A DNA stretch of 64,000 nt from an uncultured Eubacteriales bacterium (GCA_948468985.1 CAOKKG010000002.1:7704-71703), one strand, 5' to 3'. Positions 11,714-24,405 are shown, numbered from the stretch's first letter. Numbers and translations: made by a program. Notes: a model not told the origin generated them from the letters alone.

Positions 11714-13087
11714 TCAGGCGTTTTCCGCCGCCAGATCCCGGGCGAATTGCTCCAGCAGCCCGAGATCCCACAGCAGGCGGCTGCCGACATACTTGTCGCG
11801 GATGTCCTTGGTCATGCGGAAGGTCTCTGCGACCTCCGCCGCCGTAAGCCCGAGTTCCGCGGGCGTCGTCTTGCCGCCCACCGCTTGCAGGAAGCTCTCC
11901 ACCGCCTCCGCACGGGGCAGTTCCCGCAAAATTTCCAAAATGCGCGGCCATTTTTGCAAAATGACCTCCAACCGCCGGGCGTGCGCGGCTTTGTCGTACT
12001 TGCCCTCCCGCGCCTCCAGCGCGATCATGGCCTCTGCCCCACCGCCTAAAAACGCGCGCAGACGTGAGCACCAATCCTCCCATCGAAACACCTGTACCGC
12101 GGCCAACGCGGCTTCCTGGTCCGGCCGGACGGCACACAGCTTTTCATAGATCTTGAGGCAGAGCAGCGTGGCCACGCCCACCTGTTCGCCGTGCAGGTGC
12201 TCCGGGCGGTCGAATGCGAGCGCCCGCATGTCCCAGATGTGCGAAAAATAGTGCTCCATCCCCGACGCGGGGCGCGTCACCCCGGCAAAGCCCATCGCGA
12301 GGCCGGACAGCACCAGCCCTTCCATGACGCAGCCGACCGCGTCCGGGTCGCGCCGAGAAAGCCCCTCCGCCGCGGCCGCGCATTTGTCGAGCGACCGCCG
12401 CACGAGGTTCGCCACATGCGGACAGAAATATTCCCCGTTGACCTCCGCCGAAATGCGCCATTCGGCAAGGCTTATATACTTTGCCAGCATATCGCCCAGC
12501 CCCGCGGCCAGAAGCTCCCCGGGCGCGGCGGCGAGGATGTCGGTATCTCCCAAAATCGCGCGCGCCCCCGCCGTCGGCAGCGAGCTTTTGAGCCCGTCCA
12601 GCACCATGGACGAAGTGTCCGACGCGAAGCCGTCCATGGACGGAGCCGTCCCCACGATGAGGTATGGCCGCCCGGTGAGCCCAGCCAGAATTTTACAGAT
12701 GTCATTGATCGTCCCGCCGCCGACACCGATGATCACATCCGCCGCGTGCGCGAAATGCATGGCTGCCTGCCCCACGGGAGCTGCCTCGGCCGTGACGCGC
12801 GCCTCGGGGAAGCAGTAGGTATGACAGGCGATACCCGCCTTAGAGAGCAGCGCTTCGGCCCGCGCGCCCGCCGCATGGTAGGTATTCCCGTCGCAGTACA
12901 TCTGCACCGTGCGCCCGCCCAATTGCCGCACGCGTTCTGGCAGGCGCGAAAGCACACCGCGGCCGATATCCGCAAAGCGCAGCGCCGTTTTGTGCACCTT
13001 GCCGCAGGGGCAGGCAAAGCCCTCCGGCCGCAGGAGCTCCCCAAGGTTCCCTTCCTCCCAAGCCGTCTGCACCGCTTGCTCCTCCAT
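11714..13087 (-). CDS. sn-glycerol-1-phosphate dehydrogenase (AraM/EgsA family)
   Basis: GGGTINDICK, TAPSMDGFAS, AGLGDMLAK, SGMEHYFSH, HGEQVG. Confidence 0.85.
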   Translation of the reverse strand: MEEQAVQTAWEEGNLGELLRPEGFACPCGKVHKTALRFADIGRGVLSRLPERVRQLGGRTVQMYCDGNTYHAAGARAEALLSKAGIACHTYCFPEARVTAEAAPVGQAAMHFAHAADVIIGVGGGTINDICKILAGLTGRPYLIVGTAPSMDGFASDTSSMVLDGLKSSLPTAGARAILGDTDILAAAPGELLAAGLGDMLAKYISLAEWRISAEVNGEYFCPHVANLVRRSLDKCAAAAEGLSRRDPDAVGCVMEGLVLSGLAMGFAGVTRPASGMEHYFSHIWDMRALAFDRPEHLHGEQVGVATLLCLKIYEKLCAVRPDQEAALAAVQVFRWEDWCSRLRAFLGGGAEAMIALEAREGKYDKAAHARRLEVILQKWPRILEILRELPRAEAVESFLQAVGGKTTPAELGLTAAEVAETFRMTKDIRDKYVGSRLLWDLGLLEQFARDLAAENA

Positions 13088-13101
13088 ATCCTGCGTCCTC
13101 C

Positions 13102-14289
13102 TTATGCGAAATAGCTGTCCGCGAGCTTTTGGAACGCGGGCAGGGAGCGCTCCACCTTGTCCGTGTCGATGCAGAAGGAGATGCGGAAGTTGCCCGGGCA
13201 TCCAAAGCTCGTCCCCGGCACGAGCAGCAGGTCGAACTCTTTAGCGCGGCGGCTTAAGCCCTCGCTGTCGCCGTCCGGCGCCTCGGGGAAGAGATAGAAG
13301 GTCCCGCCCGGCTCCACACAGGCAAAGCCCATGCGCCGCAGCGCCGGGTACAGGATGTTCTTATTCGTCTCATACACGCGAAGGTCGGCCGTTTCCTCCA
13401 ACACCTCGGGCACCGCCAATTGGATGATCGAGGGCGGGCAGTTGTGCCCGATCCCGCGGGAGATTTGCGCGCACACCGGCGCGACGAGCTCCGCGTCCTC
13501 TGCCTCCGGGTGCACTGCGACATAGCCGATGCGCTCGCCCGGCAGCGAGAGCGACTTGCTGAACGAATAACAGGTGAGCGTGTTCGCATAGAACCGCGCC
13601 GGGCTCGGACATTCCTGCCCGGCAAACAGGATCTCGCGGTACGGCTCGTCCGAGATCAGGTAGATCGCGTGGCCGAATTCGCGCTGCTTGACCTCCAGCA
13701 TATCCGCCAGGCGGACGAGCGTCTCCATCGAATAAATCGCGCCCGAGGGGTTGTTCGGGCTGTTTAGCAGCACCGCCGCCGTCTTGGGCGAGAGCGCCGC
13801 CTCCATCGCCGCAAGGTCGATTTGAAAATCTGCTGTCTGCGCCGGCACGACCCGGAGCGTGCACCCCGCGCCCGCCACATAGGGGCCGTATTCCGGGAAA
13901 TACGGTGCGACGGTCACGACCTCGCTGCCGGGGGCTGCCACCGCGCGCAGCGCATGCGCCAACGCCCCAGCCGCCCCCGTCGTGAGAAAGATATGCTCGG
14001 CGCGGTAGTCCAGCACAAACCGCCGCTTGAGCGAAGCGGCGATGGCCTCCCGCACCGCGGGGATGCCCATGCTCGGGCTATAGCCGTGCACCTCGATGTC
14101 CCGCCCCGACAGCGCCAGCCGCGCCAGCGCCTCATTAAACGCCCGAGGGGCGGGCACCGAAGGGTTGCCGAGGCTATAGTCAAACACATTGTCCGCCCCG
14201 ACCTCCGCCGCGCGCGCCCGGCCATAATCGAACAATTCTCGAATGGCCGATTTCTGAGCCAACATATCCCGATATTTCTTCGTGATCAT
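13102..14289 (-). CDS. Class I/II PLP aminotransferase (aspartate aminotransferase-like)
   Basis: LGNP, NSPNNPSG, SDEPY, SFSKSLSLPGERIG. Confidence 0.92.
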   Translation of the reverse strand: MITKKYRDMLAQKSAIRELFDYGRARAAEVGADNVFDYSLGNPSVPAPRAFNEALARLALSGRDIEVHGYSPSMGIPAVREAIAASLKRRFVLDYRAEHIFLTTGAAGALAHALRAVAAPGSEVVTVAPYFPEYGPYVAGAGCTLRVVPAQTADFQIDLAAMEAALSPKTAAVLLNSPNNPSGAIYSMETLVRLADMLEVKQREFGHAIYLISDEPYREILFAGQECPSPARFYANTLTCYSFSKSLSLPGERIGYVAVHPEAEDAELVAPVCAQISRGIGHNCPPSIIQLAVPEVLEETADLRVYETNKNILYPALRRMGFACVEPGGTFYLFPEAPDGDSEGLSRRAKEFDLLLVPGTSFGCPGNFRISFCIDTDKVERSLPAFQKLADSYFA

Positions 14290-14334
14290 CGCGTTTTCTC
14301 CTCCTGCTAGCGATCTTCCTTTACAGTTTGTACT

Positions 14335-14363
14335 ATTGTAAAACAAATGCCGCAGCCTGTAAA
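14335..14363 (-). promoter_or_regulatory. Sigma-A promoter of the aminotransferase-G1PDH-flippase operon
   Basis: TTTACA-17nt-TACAAT on the minus strand. Confidence 0.7.
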
Positions 14364-14412
14364 CCTCCCCGGCAAAAAGCAAAGCGGGACAGCCCCGCTG
14401 CCCCGCTATTTG

Positions 14413-15204
14413 TCACAGCTTTCTCGATTTTTCCGCCCCGGCGCGGACGCACTGCATCACCGCTGCGCGCAAGCCGCCCTCCTCGAGCGCCAGGCAGCCC
14501 TCGATGGTCGTGCCGCCCGGCGAAGTGACCATGTCCTTGAGTTCGCCCGGATGCATGCCCTTTTGGAGCAGCATCTTGGCCGTGCCGAGAAGCGTCTGCG
14601 CCGCCAGACGATAGGCCGTCTGCCGCGGCAGGCCCTCCATCACGCCGCCGTCGGCCAGCGCCTCCACAAACATCGCCGCATAGGCCGGACCGCCGCCCGA
14701 CAGCCCGCACACCGCATCGATGAGCCGCTCCGGAATCCATTCGACGATGCCCTGCGCCGCAAAGATGTCCTCCGCGAGCGCCTTTTCCTCGGCCGTCGCG
14801 TCCGAATCCGCACACAGGGCGAAGGCCCCCTCGAGCACCATGGCCGGCGTGTTGGGCATGCAGCGCAGCACGCGCGCCCCGCCGCCCGTCATCTCGCGCA
14901 GGCGATTGGAGGTCACCCCCGCCATGATGGACAGCAGGCATTTGCCCACAAAGGCCTCCGCCATCCCGCCGAGCGTCGCCTCGGCATACTGCGGCTTGAC
15001 CGCCGCCACAATCATGTCCGCCGCTCGACAGACCTCTTCCCGATCCGCCGCCAGCCGCACGCCAAGCGCAGCCATCCGCTGCATCGCCGCCGCGGAAATG
15101 TCAAAGACGATCACCTGTGCCGCCTCAAGCTGCCCGCTTCGCAGCGCGCCTTCCAGAATCGCGCCGCCCATGTTGCCGCACCCGAGAAATCCGATTTGTT
15201 GCAT
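14413..15204 (-). CDS. proC: Pyrroline-5-carboxylate reductase
   Basis: IGFLGCGNMG, RCMPNTP, SGGGPAY, VTSPGGTT. Confidence 0.96.
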   Translation of the reverse strand: MQQIGFLGCGNMGGAILEGALRSGQLEAAQVIVFDISAAAMQRMAALGVRLAADREEVCRAADMIVAAVKPQYAEATLGGMAEAFVGKCLLSIMAGVTSNRLREMTGGGARVLRCMPNTPAMVLEGAFALCADSDATAEEKALAEDIFAAQGIVEWIPERLIDAVCGLSGGGPAYAAMFVEALADGGVMEGLPRQTAYRLAAQTLLGTAKMLLQKGMHPGELKDMVTSPGGTTIEGCLALEEGGLRAAVMQCVRAGAEKSRKL

Positions 15205-15242
15205 CTTTCCTGCCTCCGTTCGCAAAAAGGGCTTTTTCCCCA

Positions 15243-15932
15243 TTATACCGGATCACCCGGTGTTCGCCAATCCCCTTTTTCGCCATCTGGAAAAGCGCGG
15301 GGGAGGTTCCAGGCAAAGTGCGTCGCCGCCATGCGCAACAGGAAGGTCGCCGCGACCCCGGCAAACGCCGCCGTCGCCTCTGCGCAGCCCCAGCGGCACA
15401 GGGCGAGGTACACCCCCGCCCCCAGGATGGACGCCAGCGCATAAATATGCCGCCTGAAAATAACGGGGATCTCCCGAAGCAGCAGATCGCGCAACATCCC
15501 GCCGCCCACCGCCGTGAGCATCCCCATGCTCACGACCAGAAAGGTGTGCGCGGAAAAGCCGGCCTCCATCGCAAGCCGCGCGCCCGTCACCGAGCAGGCC
15601 CCGAGGCCCAGCGCGTCGATGCAGTTGTTCACCCGGTCGACGAGCGCCTTGTGCCGCAGGAACGCTGCGCGCCGCACACGCGCCAGCGTAAACACCAAGA
15701 GTGCCGTCGCAACGGCCGCCGCCGTGTGCAACGCGTCGAAAAACAGTGCGGGCGGCGTTTTGCCAAGCAGCAGGTCGCGCAGCATCCCGCCGCCCATCGC
15801 CGTCGTAAGCCCCAAAAAGGCCACCCCGAACAGATCCACATTCTTCTCAATCGCGATCATCGCGCCGGAGATCGCAAAGGCGACCGTGCCGAGCAGCGCG
15901 AAAAACGCGAGGATCGCTTCCGCAAAATCCAT
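15243..15932 (-). CDS. UPF0126/TRIC-family membrane protein
   Basis: Duplicated D-x-FG..TAMGGGMLRD / TAVGGGMLRD motifs, DALGL. Confidence 0.88.
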   Translation of the reverse strand: MDFAEAILAFFALLGTVAFAISGAMIAIEKNVDLFGVAFLGLTTAMGGGMLRDLLLGKTPPALFFDALHTAAAVATALLVFTLARVRRAAFLRHKALVDRVNNCIDALGLGACSVTGARLAMEAGFSAHTFLVVSMGMLTAVGGGMLRDLLLREIPVIFRRHIYALASILGAGVYLALCRWGCAEATAAFAGVAATFLLRMAATHFAWNLPRAFPDGEKGDWRTPGDPV

Positions 15933-18757: not shown

Positions 18758-19582
18758 ATGAAAAGCAACACCATCACTGCGCTCTGCCTCGCCTGCCTGG
18801 CCGTGCTGGCCGCCGGGCTTGTGTTTTTGACTGTCACTTCCACGCGGGAAGCCATTCCCACAGCGGCGTCCGCCGCGCACAATTGGTACTATAAGCCCCG
18901 GCAGGACGGCGGACAGCCCACCGTCGCCGACGATGCGCCGTTTCTTCAAAATTATCCCTACCTCTGCCTCGGGAATGCGGAGGAAAAGACCATCTACCTG
19001 ACCTTCGACTGCGGGTATGACAACGGCTATATTGCCAAGATGCTGGATGTCCTCCGCGAAAAGCAGGTCCCGGCGGCGTTTTTCGTGACCGGGCATTTTG
19101 TGGATTCCAGCCCGGACATCGTCCGCCGCATGGCTGCGGAGGGGCACCTTGTCTGCAACCATTCGGTGAACCATAAGGACCTTTCCGCCGCATCGCCCGA
19201 CTTCTTCCAAAAGGAGATCGGCGGGCTTTGCGAAAAATATGAGGCGATCACGGGGACGCCAATGCCCCGCTATGTCCGCCCGCCGGAGGGCAAGTATAGC
19301 GAGAACTTCCTCGAACTGTGCCGGGCGCAGGGGTATCTTCCCGTATTTTGGAGCTTCGCGTATAAGGATTGGCTGAACGACGCGCAGCCCGCGCCTGCCC
19401 AAGCGATCGAGACCATCCTGTCGCGCACGCACCCGGGGGAGGTTGCGCTTCTGCATTCGACCTCGGCCACCAATGCCGAAATTTTGGGAGAGCTCATCGA
19501 CCGCTGGCGCGCGGAGGGATATGCCTTAAAATCGCTCGACGACCTCGCCCGCGCACAGGGGCTTGCTGTCCAGCAAGGATAA
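18758..19582 (+). CDS. pdaA: PdaA-like spore cortex muramic delta-lactam deacetylase
   Basis: IYLTFDCGYDNG, CNHSVNHK, RPPEG-x-YS, FWSFAYKDW, HPG-x-V-x-LLH. Confidence 0.85.
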   Translation: MKSNTITALCLACLAVLAAGLVFLTVTSTREAIPTAASAAHNWYYKPRQDGGQPTVADDAPFLQNYPYLCLGNAEEKTIYLTFDCGYDNGYIAKMLDVLREKQVPAAFFVTGHFVDSSPDIVRRMAAEGHLVCNHSVNHKDLSAASPDFFQKEIGGLCEKYEAITGTPMPRYVRPPEGKYSENFLELCRAQGYLPVFWSFAYKDWLNDAQPAPAQAIETILSRTHPGEVALLHSTSATNAEILGELIDRWRAEGYALKSLDDLARAQGLAVQQG

Positions 19583-19728
19583 AAAGCATCAAACCCGCGC
19601 ACAGCGACAGAGTACAAAGGGGTTTTTCACCCGCACAGGCAGGGCGTCCCTTGTCGCACCGTACAGAGTATGCAAAACGCCGCAGGTAGCGCAGTAAAAT
19701 TGAAAAATCCCGTAGTGCAAAAAACATC

Positions 19729-19758
19729 AAAAAAAGCTCCCACACGGGAGCTTTTTTT
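19729..19758. terminator. Bidirectional terminator between pdaA and the amino-acid operon
   Basis: AAAAAAAGCTCCC-ACAC-GGGAGCTTTTTTT. Confidence 0.9.
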
Positions 19759-19772
19759 GTGTTTTCTTCGGT

Positions 19773-20963
19773 TTAGTCCATCTGCAAATAGGCGGACAGC
19801 TTGCCTAGCCGATCGATCGCCTCGCGCAGGGAATCCTCGCTGCGCGCGAAGTGCAGGCGGATCAGGTGGTTGATGGGTTCCCGGAAGAAGCTGGACCCCG
19901 GCACGGCGGCCACGCCGACTTCCTCAATCATCCATTCGCAGAATTGCAGGTCCGTCCATCCCTGGAACTTCGGCTTGGCCAAAAAGTCGGAAATATCCAC
20001 CAAAATGAAGTATGACCCCTGCGGCGCCGTGTGCTTCAGGCCGATGGAATCCAGCCCGTCCATGAAAATCTGCCGCTTTTTGGCGTACATGGCGCCCAAT
20101 TCGTCGTAATAGTCCTGCCCCAGGCCATAGGCGGCGCAAGCGGCCTCCTGCAAGGGTGCAGGCGCGCCCACCGTCAAAAAATCATGCACCTTTTTGACAT
20201 TTTCGGCCACCGCCGGCGGCGCAATCAAAAACCCGAGCCGCCATCCCGTGATGGAGAAGGTCTTGGACAGCGAATTGCAGGTGATAACCCGCTCGCGCCC
20301 GCCCGGCAGCGACGCCGCCGCGATATGCGTATACGGGGCGAATACGATGTGTTCATACACCTCGTCTGTGATGACAAAGGCGTCGTATTTCTCCGCAAGC
20401 GAGAGAATGTAGGTAAGCTCTTCCCGCGTGAATACCTTGCCGCACGGGTTCGAAGGGTTGCACACGATGATCGCCTTGACGCCCTCCTGGAATGCGGCCT
20501 CCAGCGCCTGCTTGTCAAAGTCAAATTCCGGCGGATTGAGCGGAACATAAATGGGCTCTGCCCCGGACAGGATCGCATCCGCGCCATAGTTTTCATAAAA
20601 CGGGCTAAAGACAATCACCTTGTCGCCCGGGTCGCAGACGGTCATCATCGCCGCCATCATGGCCTCGGTCGACCCGCAGGTCACGACGATCTCGCTTTCC
20701 GGGTCGATGTCATAGCCAAAGCGGGGCGAATACTTCGCCGCGATGCACTTGCGCAGGTTCTCTGAACCAAAGGTGATGGAATACTGATGCTGCTCGCCGC
20801 CGCTGGCCATCTTGGCCAGGGCGTCGAGCAGCACCTGGGGCGGATCGAAATCCGGAAAGCCCTGGGAGAGGTTGATGCTCCCCTCCCGGGCGTCGCTGAT
20901 TCGCGTCATCCGCCGAATTACGGAATCCGTAAATGTATCGACGCGCTTACTCAACTTGGGCAT
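19773..20963 (-). CDS. Class I PLP aminotransferase, YbdL/kynurenine-glutamine transaminase-like
   Basis: INLSQGFPDF, GSTEAM, NPSNPCGKVF, DEVYEH, SLSKTFSITGWRLG. Confidence 0.9.
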   Translation of the reverse strand: MPKLSKRVDTFTDSVIRRMTRISDAREGSINLSQGFPDFDPPQVLLDALAKMASGGEQHQYSITFGSENLRKCIAAKYSPRFGYDIDPESEIVVTCGSTEAMMAAMMTVCDPGDKVIVFSPFYENYGADAILSGAEPIYVPLNPPEFDFDKQALEAAFQEGVKAIIVCNPSNPCGKVFTREELTYILSLAEKYDAFVITDEVYEHIVFAPYTHIAAASLPGGRERVITCNSLSKTFSITGWRLGFLIAPPAVAENVKKVHDFLTVGAPAPLQEAACAAYGLGQDYYDELGAMYAKKRQIFMDGLDSIGLKHTAPQGSYFILVDISDFLAKPKFQGWTDLQFCEWMIEEVGVAAVPGSSFFREPINHLIRLHFARSEDSLREAIDRLGKLSAYLQMD

Positions 20964-20972
20964 AGCTTCTTT

Positions 20973-21776
20973 TTATTCCTCCGGCATGAGCGCCTGAGCG
21001 TCGAGCGTGTACTTGGAAATCAGATCCTCATCCACAACCTTTTTGACGATCTCGTTCAGCTTGGCCAAAAATTCCTCGTCGCCCTTCTGCACGCCGATGC
21101 GGATGCCGCTGTCAGCCGAACGCTCAAAGGTGAGCGGGCAAATCGCAAGGCTCGGATCCGCGCTGACATACGCCTTGGCGACCAATTCGTCCATGAGCGC
21201 ACCCTCGACCTTGCCGTTCTGCACTTCGAGGATCAGATCCTGCACCTTGGTGAGGCCGACGACACTGTCCTGGCCCGCGAATTCCACGGCCTTGTCATAC
21301 GGTTTTGCACCCGTCTGCGCCGCGACCTTGTGGCCTTCGATGTCCTCCGGCTTTGTGAAGTTCGACGCCACATCCTTTTTCATAATGACCACGGTGTCCG
21401 TATAGTACACGATATCCGTGAAGTCGATGCTCTTCCGACGGTTGTCGTCCGCGCTCATGCAGGCGGCGACGATGTCGAATTCGCCCTGCTTGAGGCTCAT
21501 AACAAGGTTGTCAAAGGACATGTCCACAACCTTGAGCTTGACGCCGAGTTCGTCCGCAATGTGCTGGCACAGCGAGATGTCGATGCCGACAATCGTGTCC
21601 GCTCCATCCACTTCCGTGTGGAATTCAAACGGCGCATAGTCAGCGGAGGTGCCGACCACGAGTTCGCCGGCCTCCTTGATCTGTTCGAGTTTGCTCTTTT
21701 CTTCCTTCTTCTTGCCGCAGGCGGCGACGCCGAACAGCGTCATGACCGCGAGTGCGAATGCTAAAAACTTTTTCAT
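20973..21776 (-). CDS. Polar amino-acid ABC transporter substrate-binding lipoprotein
   Basis: Lipobox VAAC; GTSADYAPFEF, G-x-DI, RRKSIDFT. Confidence 0.93.
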   Translation of the reverse strand: MKKFLAFALAVMTLFGVAACGKKKEEKSKLEQIKEAGELVVGTSADYAPFEFHTEVDGADTIVGIDISLCQHIADELGVKLKVVDMSFDNLVMSLKQGEFDIVAACMSADDNRRKSIDFTDIVYYTDTVVIMKKDVASNFTKPEDIEGHKVAAQTGAKPYDKAVEFAGQDSVVGLTKVQDLILEVQNGKVEGALMDELVAKAYVSADPSLAICPLTFERSADSGIRIGVQKGDEEFLAKLNEIVKKVVDEDLISKYTLDAQALMPEE

Positions 21777-21810
21777 CGCAGCATTTCTCCTTTATGTACG
21801 ATTTTGAAAT

Positions 21811-22842
21811 TTATTCCCAGAGGGGCTTATCCCACAGGTTTACTTTGGTGCCGATGCCCTTTTCCATCGCGTTCAGGTACATTTGATACCCGATCATGAT
21901 GTCCAGCGCGCCGAGGCCCATGGAGGCCGACATGACAAATTGGTCGTCCGAAGTGCGCAGTTTCTTTTCGCCGAGCACGAGCTGGCAAAGGTCGATGATC
22001 TCGCCTTCGGCGAGCTTGCCTTCCTTCGTGAGCTTGGAAAGCGGATTGACATGCTGCTTTAGCTGCGTCCAATAGTCCGCCGCTACCGCGTCCGCCGCGA
22101 GCACGACTTCCTCGCACACCTCGCCGGAGTGCATGGTCACGAGGCCGCAGCCGGGGGTCAGCCAGGACTTGTCGATGATCGGCTTGCGCGAGGTCGTCTC
22201 GCCCACGATGAGCTGGGATTTCAGCGCGCAGCCCTTGGAATCCGTCGAGGGGATGATCGTCACGCCGAGGCTGTCGCCATATTCCTTTGCGATCTCCTCT
22301 GCCTTTGCAAGGTCAAGGTCGCACAGGTACATCGTTTTAATCTGCGGGAGAGCCACATGGATAGCCGAGACCATCGTACGGCCGATGACGCCCGCGCCGA
22401 CCAGCGTAGCCGTCGTCGCGTTGGAGGGCGCCGTGTATTTCGCCATGACGCCGCCCACAGCCGAGGTGCGCATCGCCGTGATGAGCGTGCCGTCCAGGAT
22501 GCAGAACGGGAGCACCGTTTCCGGGTCGCTCAGGATGGAAATGTCGATGCCATAGGGAATGCCAGGGATGGTCGCGTTCTTCTTGGCCTCCGCCGCCCAC
22601 TTGACACCTGCGATGTTTACATCGCCACCGATATAGCAGGGCATGGAGTTGAAAAAGGACTGCCAGTTTTCCTTATCGGGAATGCTCGTGTTTGTCTTGG
22701 GCGGGTTCTTGATCTGCCCCTTGCCGAGCATCGCATAGGTCTTTTCGGTGACTTCGATGATCTGCTTCATGTCCAAGAGACCTGCATTTACTACATCTTC
22801 CTGTTTCAGGAACAGAATTTCCGGGTTTGTCGTGTGCAGCAT
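21811..22842 (-). CDS. Ornithine cyclodeaminase/mu-crystallin family protein
   Basis: MP-x-YIGG, GVKW, DGTLITAMRTSA, VGAGVIG, SMGLGALD. Confidence 0.88.
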   Translation of the reverse strand: MLHTTNPEILFLKQEDVVNAGLLDMKQIIEVTEKTYAMLGKGQIKNPPKTNTSIPDKENWQSFFNSMPCYIGGDVNIAGVKWAAEAKKNATIPGIPYGIDISILSDPETVLPFCILDGTLITAMRTSAVGGVMAKYTAPSNATTATLVGAGVIGRTMVSAIHVALPQIKTMYLCDLDLAKAEEIAKEYGDSLGVTIIPSTDSKGCALKSQLIVGETTSRKPIIDKSWLTPGCGLVTMHSGEVCEEVVLAADAVAADYWTQLKQHVNPLSKLTKEGKLAEGEIIDLCQLVLGEKKLRTSDDQFVMSASMGLGALDIMIGYQMYLNAMEKGIGTKVNLWDKPLWE

Positions 22843-22920
22843 AGTTGTAATCCTCCAAAATTTTGAATTTTTTTATTTATCGTATATTGTTTACTTTGTT
22901 TCCTCTGCGCGGCAGCCGCG

Positions 22921-23667
22921 TCAGATGACATTGATCACCTTGGACAAAAATTCCTTGGTCCGCGGGTTCTGCGGGTTTTCGAAGATGTCCTTCGGCGTTC
23001 CCTCCTCAGCGATCACGCCGCTATCCATGAACAGGACGCGTGTCGCGACCTTTTGCGCGAAACCCATCTCGTGCGTGACGACCACCATCGTGATCCCCTC
23101 CTTTGCGAGATTGGAGATCACCCCAAGTACCTCGCCCACCATTTCCGGGTCGAGCGCAGAGGTCGGCTCGTCAAACAGCAGGACATCCGGCTCCATCGCG
23201 AGCGCCCGCACAATCGCAATGCGCTGCTTCTGCCCGCCGGAGAGCTGCGAGGGGTACGCCTCCGCCTTGTCGGCCAGACCGACCCGGGCGAGCAGTTCCA
23301 TCGCCTTCTTTTCGGCCTCTTCTTTTTTCACATGCTTGACCTTGTCGAGCGCGATGGTCACATTGTCCAGCACATTCAGGTTGTTAAACAGGTTGAACTG
23401 CTGAAAGACCATACCCACCTTTTGCCGGTGCTTGTTGACATCAAAGCCCTTGGCCGTGATGTCCGTGCCTTCAAAGATAATCTGCCCGCTCGTCGGCTTT
23501 TCGAGGAGATTCAGGCATCGGATGAAGGTGGACTTGCCGCCGCCGGACGGCCCGATAATCGCCGCGACATCGCCCTTCTGAAAGGTCGCGTTAATCCCCT
23601 TTAGCACATCGAGCTTGCCAAAGCTCTTGGTGAGATCCTTGACCTCAAACATGACTTCACTTTTCAC
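22921..23667 (-). CDS. Polar amino-acid ABC transporter ATP-binding protein (GlnQ-like)
   Basis: [34 protein letters not shown]. Confidence 0.95.
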
Positions 23668-24337
23668 TCTTCTTCAACCTCCTCTCAAATAGGCTCAGGC
23701 CCTTGCCGAGCAGGATATTCAGCACCAGGTAGATAATCGCCGAGATATAGTAGCACGGCAGCGGGTTGTAGGTCGCTGTCACGACGATGCCGTTGTTGTA
23801 CATCAGATCTGCGATGCCCAGGTACTGCACGATGGAGGTTTCCTTGACCATCGTGACGAATTCGTTGCCGATCGCGGGCAGGATGTTCTTGACCGCCTGC
23901 GGCAGGATGATGTAGCGCATCGCCTGTGACGCCGTCATCCCGCAGGAACGGGCCGCCTCGGTCTGCCCCACATCCACCGCCTGGATGCCTGCGCGGATGA
24001 TTTCCGCGATATAGGCCGCCGAGTTGATGGACAAGGCGATCATGCAGGGGATGGCCCGCTGCATATCCACGCCGAACAGCGTGCCCTGCGGATAGGGGAT
24101 GAAGTCCAGCTGATAATAGACGATATAGAGCTGCACCAGCATCGGCGTGCCGCGGATGATCGTGATATAGAGCTTGGAGAACCATTGCAGCGGCTTCACA
24201 TGGGAAAGCCGCATAAGCGCGATGGCGCATCCCAGGATCGCCCCGAAAAAGACGGTAAACAGCGCGACGACGATGGTCGTCTGGGTCCCTCGCAGGAAAT
24301 ATTGATAATACTGTGCGATGATCTCAAAGAATCCCAT
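23657..24337 (-). CDS. Polar amino-acid ABC transporter permease
   Basis: [30 protein letters not shown] loop, [11 protein letters not shown]. Confidence 0.95.
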
Positions 24338-24376
24338 AATTCCTCTTCCTGTGTATTTGAAACTTTTGATGTATGC

Positions 24377-24405
24377 ATTGTATATTTATTCACGATATTT
24401 GTCAA
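24377..24405 (-). promoter_or_regulatory. Sigma-A promoter of the amino-acid ABC/OCD operon
   Basis: TTGACA-17nt-TACAAT. Confidence 0.85.

Follow-up and report, generated by a model that had tools for sequence, protein, structure and literature searches.

The 64,000-nt window analysed here (GCA_948468985.1, CAOKKG010000002.1:7704-71703), that is, the whole stretch of DNA under study, comes from an uncultured Eubacteriales bacterium, has a GC content of 60% and contains, between positions 19773 and 24405, five open reading frames (ORFs), all on the minus strand, in the order permease, ATPase, enzyme of the ornithine cyclodeaminase (OCD)/mu-crystallin superfamily, binding lipoprotein and aminotransferase (Table 1). 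Permease, ATPase and family-3 binding lipoprotein, coded in one gene run, constitute an ATP-binding cassette (ABC) importer of the polar-amino-acid (PAAT) type. The analyses described below indicate that the importer and the OCD-family enzyme are a conserved unit, that the enzyme falls outside the characterised subfamilies and that the aminotransferase is a facultative addition; a tentative reading is that the system serves the uptake of a basic amino acid and its conversion to proline or pipecolate.

The spacings along the five-gene run are -11, 78, 34 and 9 nt, the GTG start of the ATPase gene overlapping the permease stop by 11 nt. The sigma-70-type site TTGACA-17-TACAAT, located about 40 nt upstream of the permease start codon, was the top promoter-like site in a 7.5-kb scan, which returned nine sites versus 3.3 +/- 1.9 expected; the start codon is preceded by the ribosome-binding site AGGAAGAGGA. 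At the other end, a terminator-like hairpin starts 13 nt past the stop codon of the aminotransferase gene and lies between it and a convergent polysaccharide-deacetylase gene (18758-19582, plus strand), serving both. No Rfam element was found in the leader or in the intergenic gaps, and no riboswitch, T-box or leader in the 246-nt upstream region; matches to the Rfam families Thr_leader (27 bits versus 55) and RNAI at 19695-19760 are sub-threshold, coincide with the terminator hairpin and were rejected as real members. Independent gene calls on four metagenome contigs gave the identical five genes. These signals support the prediction that the five genes form an operon between one promoter match and one terminator hairpin, and they confirm the anatomy that the initial annotation of the window had described (one promoter, five genes with gaps of 78 nt or less, one terminator).

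Table 1. Genes of the importer-enzyme-aminotransferase operon and its flanking signals; positions are counted from the first letter of the window.
Feature	Position	Strand	Support
Sigma-70-type promoter-like site, TTGACA-17-TACAAT	24377..24405	-	11/12 match
ABC importer permease, 226 aa, polar-amino-acid (PAAT) type	23657..24337	-	Pfam BPD_transp_1 1e-23
ABC importer ATPase, 248 aa, GTG start	22921..23667	-	Pfam ABC_tran 2.3e-36
OCD/mu-crystallin superfamily enzyme, predicted NAD(H)-dependent, 343 aa	21811..22842	-	Pfam OCD_Mu_crystall 2.8e-37
Substrate-binding lipoprotein, 267 aa, family 3 (LAO/ArtJ type)	20973..21776	-	Pfam SBP_bac_3 9e-29
Class I aminotransferase, YbdL / kynurenine-glutamine transaminase K family, 396 aa	19773..20963	-	Pfam Aminotran_1_2 9.5e-71
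Bidirectional intrinsic-terminator-like hairpin, 14-bp stem, A and T runs on flanks	19728..19759	both	13 nt past the last stop codon

The OCD-family enzyme, which public sources name only “ornithine cyclodeaminase family protein”, matches PF02423 with 128.8 bits (cut-off 24), its residues 14-328 spanning profile positions 8-313 of 314, and reaches no curated NCBIfam cut-off. The scores are 175.5 bits for the SbnB family TIGR03944 (cut-off 326.9), 162 for PRK06199 (362) and 134 for the archaeal alanine dehydrogenase model ala_DH_arch (409), and the ornithine cyclodeaminase equivalogs all failed (PRK07589, 50.2 versus 350; PRK08618, 136 versus 417; PRK06407, 42.8 versus 337). The three solved structures closest by sequence are SbnB (2.8e-36), the T. 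litoralis pyrroline-2-carboxylate reductase (TlLhpI, 6t3e; 2.5e-34) and the Archaeoglobus alanine dehydrogenase (AfAlaDH, 1omo; 8.5e-26), followed by the Medicago piperideine-2-carboxylate reductase (7rbp, 2e-11), CmnK, P. putida OCD (6.4e-10) and CRYM (4bv8, 7e-7; 2i99, 1.1e-6). An AlphaFold2 model of the enzyme (predicted local distance difference test score, pLDDT, 90) was compared with the PDB by Foldseek: the top 46 matches were all superfamily members, with template modelling (TM) scores of 0.68-0.89, and their E-value order resembled the sequence order. SbnB was the top match (0.89), followed by TlLhpI (0.84), AfAlaDH (0.85), CmnK (0.84) and OCD (0.80), with 7rbp scoring 0.82; CRYM, with 0.74-0.77, had the lowest score among the superfamily classes found.

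The superfamily is defined by the substrate tetrad [Arg/Lys]-Lys-Arg-Asp and by the Rossmann motif G-x-G-x-x-[A/S/G]; in the P. putida OCD, Asp228 is catalytic and Glu56 binds the delta-amine (PMC4141209). A MAFFT alignment of the enzyme family with SbnB, TlLhpI, AfAlaDH, BhcD and CRYM was used for residue mapping. The tetrad is present as Lys49, Lys81, Arg125 and Asp314, invariant in 24 family members, the Rossmann motif is GAGVIG at residues 149-154, and Asp175, at the end of strand beta-2, is invariant as in NAD(H)-dependent members, while mouse CRYM has N-R-T there; Asp175 thus predicts NAD(H), not NADPH, as the cofactor. Since the enzyme keeps the tetrad, GAGVIG and Asp175, its substrate would be an alpha-amino, imino or keto acid, handled with NAD(H). 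The cyclodeaminase residues follow a different pattern. The active-site loop G-x-D-x-P-G-K has a 5-residue deletion, like that of SbnB, and the Asp228 column, which falls within it, holds Gly240 in the enzyme and N, G, M, Y, A, H or V, all non-acidic, in its relatives; the Glu56 column holds Asn65, invariant in the family (Leu52 in TlLhpI, Gly60 in CRYM), these two columns having been placed through AfAlaDH Asp219, TlLhpI Val244 and Leu52, and CRYM (as in PMC4141209) in an alignment without the P. putida sequence. Family-specific features are the invariant motif PGIPYGID, which includes Asp100, and a conserved C-terminal LWDKPLWE.

On these residues, the protein represents an uncharacterised subfamily and is predicted to act on alpha-amino or imino acids with NAD(H). 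It can be counted neither as a classical cyclodeaminase nor as an SbnB orthologue, it is not close to CRYM, and its likeness to mu-crystallin goes no further than the superfamily. The initial annotation was therefore right in stating that it is not a plain ornithine cyclodeaminase, whereas the analogy with CRYM that it had drawn did not hold, given the distance between the two in sequence and in fold and the use of NADPH by CRYM. Three records considered as classical OCD references were discarded: an Agrobacterium pTi “ornithine cyclodeaminase”, which sits in an SbnA-like context with a cysteine-synthase-family gene (a true SbnB-type context, on a plasmid), a Rhizobium record without a match to P. 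putida OCD, and an Azospirillum match that turned out to be BhcD-like.

The importer gives indications on the substrate. The permease contains the HEQRo three-transmembrane domain TIGR01726 (80.6 bits, cut-off 42.2), and its best NCBIfam matches are the cystine (top), ectoine and glutamine permeases, all under the curated cut-offs; the ATPase resembles GlnQ and TcyN and also scores under their cut-offs. The binding protein has an N-terminal signal peptide ending in the lipobox-like GVAAC. Its top solved relatives are 4ymx, 4h5f and 4i62, at E-values of 1e-41 to 1e-39, and Thermotoga 4prs (1.8e-31), all of which we take to be arginine-binding proteins; structures named arginine- or lysine/arginine/ornithine (LAO)-binding by the search tool come after them with lower scores, and a cystine-type binding protein matches at 1.8e-20, versus 1e-41 for the arginine type. 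The best NCBIfam match is the lysine/arginine/ornithine binding family TIGR01096, with 109.5 bits, under the cut-off of 256. Among 64 enzyme-linked binding proteins Ser44, Asp46, Pro49, Glu51, Arg113 and Gln154 are invariant and Gly156 is found in 62; 4ymx, 4h5f and 4prs have the same residue at all seven positions of this motif (S-A-D-(Y/F)-x-P-x-E, Arg113 and Gln154-x-Gly), which, by analogy with LAO/ArtJ-type proteins, may include ligand contacts. The sequence of the binding protein suggests a basic amino acid as the imported substrate class.

The relatives of the locus are mostly known from the gut. The operon locus is 99% identical to a Hadza gut metagenome-assembled genome (MAG) labelled uncultured Christensenellaceae; other relatives, from human, chicken and ruminant guts, are labelled Oscillibacter, Hominicoprocola, Dysosmobacter, Pygmaiobacter, Anaerofilum, Yanshouia and Ruthenibacterium, and cultured carriers of the module are found in Dysosmobacter, Hominicoprocola, Pygmaiobacter, Anaerofilum and Yanshouia. 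A protein collection yielded 524 homologues of the enzyme at E<=1e-20, mainly from gut metagenomes, and single 90%-identity clusters of the family hold up to 3,928 member sequences. In some database proteins of 464-593 aa (P0022, P0024, P0026-P0028, P0034, P0067 and P0103) the OCD domain is fused to ABC_tran, SBP_bac_3, BPD_transp_1 or unrelated domains. Rather than being true fusions, such proteins probably stem from frameshifts in metagenome assemblies or from gene calls that read through; they do reflect the tight gene spacing.

Gene order was compared in 80 GTDB loci encoding relatives of the enzyme, onto which the five window proteins were mapped and in which all genes were called and clustered; calling relied on per-locus codon log-odds, longest-ORF calling being unsuitable because antisense ORFs win at about 60% GC. 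Among 55 informative Oscillospiraceae-type loci, 43 have the permease and ATPase genes immediately ahead of the enzyme gene, the permease orthologues having 67-97% identity, and in 52 of 60 a binding-protein gene comes directly after it. One subclade has the order binding protein, permease, ATPase, enzyme, and the Anaerolineae relatives (38-42% identity) have binding protein, enzyme, permease, ATPase, permease. Because the linkage is kept across lineages and gene orders, importer and enzyme are a conserved unit. In five loci (L013, L020, L032, L046 and L049) the pair of enzyme and binding protein is kept, three of them with the transaminase or other genes too, and no permease or ATPase is present within 8 kb upstream; there, the membrane part of the importer must be supplied from elsewhere in the genome or be held in common with another system. 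In two loci from chicken and gut MAGs (L045, 3100-8400; L048, 8007-13325) a tandem duplication of the OCD-family gene is followed by three binding-protein genes and, further downstream, by an amidohydrolase (Xaa-Pro-dipeptidase-like, sub-cut-off) and a dehydrogenase of the Ldh_2 family whose score exceeds the cut-off of the 3-dehydro-L-gulonate 2-dehydrogenase model.

The last gene of the operon codes for a transaminase whose top solved relatives are E. coli YbdL (1u08, 8.7e-72) and human kynurenine aminotransferase I (KAT I, 7.5e-68); the top ten PDB matches comprise YbdL, KAT I/III, the mosquito KAT/glutamine transaminase K (GTK), Rv0858c and BNA3. The motif INLSQGFPDFD is identical in the window protein and in YbdL, KAT I having NLGQGFPDF, and the lysine binding pyridoxal phosphate (PLP) is aligned, in SLSK234TFS. 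Thus, the assignment to the YbdL/KAT (GTK) family made in the initial annotation is upheld; all NCBIfam function cut-offs are missed (PRK08912, 350.5 versus 498; PRK07777, 339.6 versus 553; methionine aminotransferase PRK09082, 321.9 versus 420). A second gene run on the minus strand, about 4 kb from the operon (11714-15932), includes another class I/II aminotransferase, of 395 aa, which is an outgroup to that of the operon, together with a TRIC-like channel (PF03458), pyrroline-5-carboxylate reductase (ProC) and a protein of the Fe-ADH family; a proline-related gene with its own transaminase is found near the importer-enzyme module.

The linkage of the transaminase was counted in 49 loci that have the gene order of the window and enough downstream sequence. 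A YbdL/KAT-type transaminase directly follows the binding protein in 17 of these, with a gap of -23 to +22 nt in 16 and of 150 nt in one; six more carry in the same slot another class-I aminotransferase, PRK06348-like and 26-30% identical to that of the window, so that some aminotransferase is present in 23 loci and none in the other 26. When the enzymes were placed in a neighbour-joining tree, loci bearing the YbdL/KAT type appeared in several subclades, and the six with the other aminotransferase made up a single subclade nested among them; in the tree of the transaminases, 16 of the 17 operon-linked copies fall in one clade. The reverse test, a metagenome scan with a profile of the operon-linked transaminases, found 588 relatives, and among the best 80 (62-72% identity) none had an OCD gene beside the transaminase: 23 of these genes follow murD, a GNAT gene and a ynbB-like gene, three follow another importer set, and the rest have varied neighbours. 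In L094, L096 and L098 the genes ahead of the YbdL/KAT-type transaminase encode another polar-amino-acid importer (binding protein, permease, ATPase), and an OCD gene is absent; therefore, this transaminase family has been attached to amino-acid importers more than once. The idea of a transaminase dedicated to the module is rejected, in its strong form, on the reverse test; mere neighbourhood noise is not accepted either, given the tight spacing, the monophyly of the operon-linked copies and the unrelated aminotransferase found in the same slot. The link of the transaminase to the module is real but partial, and the gene is facultative and outside the conserved core; the lack of synteny between transaminase and OCD gene in related genomes, which would have refuted the initial annotation, is neither borne out nor cleanly dismissed, since 23 of 49 related loci have an aminotransferase and the other 26 and the metagenome orthologues do not conform.

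More distant relatives of the enzyme occur in contexts that bear on its reaction. In the Anaerolineae/Pelolinea MAGs (L067-L078; about 1000-9200 in L067), genes for a FrlB-like SIS protein (fructoselysine-6-phosphate-deglycase-like), a fructoselysine 6-kinase (245 bits, versus a cut-off of 247) and a class III aminotransferase precede the module; the cluster, which is conserved, continues with binding protein, OCD-family enzyme, permease, ATPase, permease and a ureohydrolase of the agmatinase/arginase family. It looks like a locus for the use of a glycated (Amadori) basic amino acid, and the ureohydrolase directly after the importer genes fits a route from arginine through ornithine to proline. 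The nearest plasmid-borne relative, from Cytobacillus (L088, 5902-10554; 33% identity), shares the loop deletion and a W-x-K-P-x-W tail, and lies in the order RpiR regulator, enzyme, proline dehydrogenase, pyrroline-5-carboxylate (P5C) dehydrogenase; its orthologue on the Brevibacillus agri chromosome (L172, 4926-11324) is found in the order RpiR, enzyme, SSF symporter, proline dehydrogenase, aldehyde (P5C) dehydrogenase. A Clostridiaceae orthologue (L173, 1749-12502) is flanked on one side by genes for a glycyl-radical enzyme and its activase; on the opposite side, beyond a sigma-54 activator gene and about 2 kb away, come genes that resemble those of a heteromeric proline dehydrogenase or opine oxidase. 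Another family member (L174, 6001-8574) adjoins an MttB-family methyltransferase. Time and again, these neighbourhoods suggest that enzymes of this branch of the superfamily make or use proline or a related imino acid. The short-loop enzymes of the Cytobacillus/Brevibacillus type are a large family of Bacilli and Clostridia, with 2,330 proteins at E<=1e-30, labelled by the sources variously as OCD or ACEGA dehydrogenase.

The gene content, the signals flanking the operon, the family memberships, the residues and the gene order are direct results, from which we infer a substrate class, a product and a role of the transaminase. The reading that we prefer, with a probability of roughly 0.4, is that a basic amino acid is taken up and turned into proline or pipecolate by NAD-linked chemistry, the transaminase assisting where it is present. 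The importer would take up a basic L-amino acid of the arginine/ornithine/lysine class, and the enzyme would work with NAD(H) at the C-alpha-N bond of an alpha-amino or imino acid. The most likely net route would lead from ornithine through delta1-pyrroline-2-carboxylate to L-proline, and the alternative one from lysine through delta1-piperideine-2-carboxylate to L-pipecolate. The imine could arise in two ways: the enzyme itself may oxidise the alpha-amine, with hydrolysis and spontaneous ring closure, as in the hydrolytic cyclodeamination scheme, or the presumably co-transcribed YbdL/KAT-type transaminase may remove the alpha-amino group; with either source, the enzyme would then reduce the cyclic imine with NADH. 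In the source organism the transaminase probably helps the imine step or the nitrogen hand-off. This reading is supported by the second-closest characterised relative, 6t3e, which is a pyrroline-2-carboxylate reductase with alanine dehydrogenase activity, and by the occurrence in proline contexts of relatives that share the loop deletion and the W-x-K-P-x-W tail.

Several observations weigh against the conversion to proline or pipecolate. Every curated NCBIfam cut-off was missed, and a literature search found no characterised close homologue of the enzyme clade. The enzyme is without the Asp228 and Glu56 of the true ornithine/lysine cyclodeaminases, and self-sufficient cyclodeamination is therefore unproven; its top structural match, SbnB, cleaves a secondary amine and forms no ring. 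The proline contexts belong to relatives of only 33-42% identity, and a similarity of about 40% identity does not fix the ligand of the binding protein. No gene for arginase, arginine deiminase, proline reductase or proline racemase was found near the Oscillospiraceae modules in the 80 loci; moreover, half of the loci have no transaminase, and the orthologues of the latter lie in unrelated neighbourhoods, such as that after murD, the GNAT gene and the ynbB-like gene.

Other functions were weighed against the same evidence. The initial annotation had compared the operon with the mammalian GTK/CRYM pair; on this model, S-aminoethylcysteine, lanthionine or cystathionine would be imported, transaminated and cyclised to a sulfur ketimine, finally reduced by the OCD-family enzyme. 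The transaminase does belong to the mammalian KAT I/GTK family, the enzyme is in the CRYM superfamily and lacks the cyclodeaminase Asp, and the top NCBIfam match of the permease, although sub-threshold, is a cystine permease; however, few solved relatives are as distant as CRYM (E 7e-7, TM 0.77), the cofactor signature is that of NAD(H) and not NADPH, the binding protein keeps the motif of the arginine binders and matches them at 1e-41 versus 1.8e-20 for the cystine type, sulfur-amino-acid genes occur in none of the 80 loci and the transaminase is absent from 26 of 49, which makes this pathway very improbable. Of the general scheme of import, transamination and reduction, the KAT-like transaminase, the departure from plain OCD and the plausibility of the imine chemistry are retained, while the choice of CRYM and of thioether substrates was over-specific; no observation speaks for a thioether or diamino-thioether substrate. 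At the opposite end, the enzyme might be a self-sufficient ornithine cyclodeaminase, the transaminase being a housekeeping enzyme merely co-transcribed at the operon end in some lineages. The public annotation, the 26 loci without transaminase, the housekeeping contexts, free of OCD genes, of all the best 80 metagenome orthologues and the relatives that lie beside proline dehydrogenase, also with no transaminase, agree with it; yet the equivalents of Asp228 and Glu56 are missing, the classical OCD equivalog scores 50 bits versus 350, P. putida OCD matches at E 6e-10 only, and the very tight spacing and the unrelated aminotransferase in the same slot of a nested subclade argue for selection on a transaminase in that position, so that we hold this explanation to be distinctly unlikely.

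A reaction without ring formation was also considered. The enzyme may be an NAD+-dependent L-amino-acid dehydrogenase, alanine-type or arginine-type as DauB, which would yield a 2-oxo acid and ammonium for fermentation, either by direct deamination of the imported amino acid or by regenerating pyruvate from the alanine made by the transaminase. In its favour, the archaeal alanine dehydrogenase is close (E 8.5e-26, TM 0.85), TlLhpI also acts as an alanine dehydrogenase, the recognised subfamilies include L-arginine dehydrogenase (PMC4141209), the enzyme has both the tetrad and the NAD site, and the pairing of transaminase and dehydrogenase is biochemically sensible. Alanine recycling alone, however, would make the transaminase the conserved partner of the importer, whereas the enzyme is conserved and the transaminase facultative; the ala_DH_arch model scores 134 versus a cut-off of 409, and the proline-linked contexts of the relatives are left unexplained. 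Transdeamination is thus unlikely, though it keeps an appreciable share of our expectation. Less weight, below that given to a self-sufficient cyclodeaminase, goes to an SbnB-like secondary-amine (opine-type) dehydrogenase, by which an imported N-alkylated basic amino acid, such as N-epsilon-carboxymethyl- or carboxyethyl-lysine, a saccharopine-like compound or N-carboxyalkyl-ornithine, would be oxidised and hydrolysed to the free amino acid and a 2-oxo acid, the transaminase acting afterwards. SbnB is the top relative by sequence and structure (E 2.8e-36, TM 0.89) and has in common with the enzyme a loop shortened by five residues and a Lys at the Arg45 position, the recognised subfamilies include opine-type dehydrogenases (PMC4141209), the family of the enzyme is plentiful in gut and rumen metagenomes, and the Anaerolineae relatives lie beside fructoselysine-kinase-like and deglycase-like genes, i.e. 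genes of glycated-amino-acid catabolism. Against it, TIGR03944 scores 175 versus 327, the genes that recur around the enzyme in the 80 loci include no SbnA/CmnB-type PLP partner (cysteine-synthase family), the pocket motif of plain-arginine binders is conserved in the binding proteins, and a literature search linking carboxymethyllysine, Oscillibacter and cyclodeaminase found nothing relevant. There is a slim chance, smaller still, that the widespread Oscillospiraceae module imports and cleaves N-alkylated basic amino acids from diet or host, namely the glycation end-products carboxymethyl- and carboxyethyl-lysine (CML/CEL) or saccharopine- or opine-like compounds, through an SbnB-like NAD+-dependent secondary-amine dehydrogenase; if true, advanced glycation end-products would be degraded anaerobically in the gut through this module. 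To our knowledge, the enzymes by which anaerobic gut bacteria degrade carboxymethyllysine have not been identified.

Returning to the preferred conversion of a basic amino acid to proline or pipecolate, the closest known arrangement is that of the occ/noc opine operons of Agrobacterium Ti plasmids, in which opine oxidase, arginase and ornithine cyclodeaminase accompany an ABC importer of the polar-amino-acid type. In both cases a PAAT importer with a LAO-type binding protein shares an operon, a predicted one in the window, with an enzyme of the OCD superfamily, and the route would end, here by inference, in the steps from arginine through ornithine to proline, the Anaerolineae relatives adding a ureohydrolase. 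Unlike occ/noc, the window operon has no opine oxidase or arginase, its enzyme comes from another subfamily (classical OCD model, 50 versus 350; no Asp228/Glu56), the enzyme gene is located between those of the ATPase and the binding protein, and the host is an anaerobic gut Firmicute. SbnB and CmnK are N-(2-amino-2-carboxyethyl)-L-glutamate dehydrogenases that form L-2,3-diaminopropionate; they are represented by the best sequence and structure match, SbnB, which has the loop deletion, the Lys at the Arg45 position and the NAD+ signature of the window enzyme but lacks the PGIPYGID motif and the C-terminal LWDKPLWE of its family. Moreover, the operon is devoid of an SbnA/CmnB-like PLP gene and of any siderophore or antibiotic cluster, and its enzyme gene is embedded in the importer.

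TlLhpI and AfAlaDH, the second and third closest solved relatives, have the tetrad and use NADH, and TlLhpI resembles the window enzyme also in that its Asp228 position is non-acidic (Val244) and its Glu56 position is occupied by a residue other than Glu (Leu52); the identity, however, is only 25-29%, the archaeal enzymes keep the long loop, and the genes around them belong to hydroxyproline or proline metabolism and not to an ABC importer with a transaminase. The closest two-enzyme logic is found in plants, where ALD1 and SARD4 convert lysine to pipecolate, and in mammals, with GTK/KAT I and CRYM: each combines an alpha-transaminase with an imine reductase of the OCD superfamily, and the Medicago piperideine-2-carboxylate reductase is a structural relative of the window enzyme (TM 0.82). 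Nevertheless, CRYM and 7rbp are distant by sequence (7e-7 and 2e-11), CRYM uses NADPH, ALD1 is from an aminotransferase subfamily other than that of the window transaminase, and the pairing is facultative here (23 of 49). The P. putida OCD (1x7d) and the lysine cyclodeaminases (5yu0, 5gzi) have the same fold, with TM scores of 0.79-0.80, and the same carboxylate-binding Lys/Arg, but the similarity to P. putida OCD stops at an E-value of 6e-10 and its Asp228 and Glu56 are replaced by Gly240 and Asn65 in the window enzyme. Because the locus differs from each known system in at least one defining feature, the enzyme is placed within the OCD/mu-crystallin superfamily and outside any named family.

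The module is common in gut and rumen Oscillospiraceae. Its enzyme fails the defining tests of every characterised subfamily and keeps the catalytic tetrad; it therefore stands for a reaction not yet assigned, at the entry of basic amino acids into these organisms. It is also a clear-cut example on which to ask if an OCD fold lacking the cyclodeaminase Asp suffices for cyclodeamination or if a transaminase partner is needed. The assignment of the enzyme would show how abundant gut anaerobes obtain proline or pipecolate from arginine, ornithine or lysine or, alternatively, how they cleave modified amino acids; in either case, metabolite pools that are relevant to the host are concerned.

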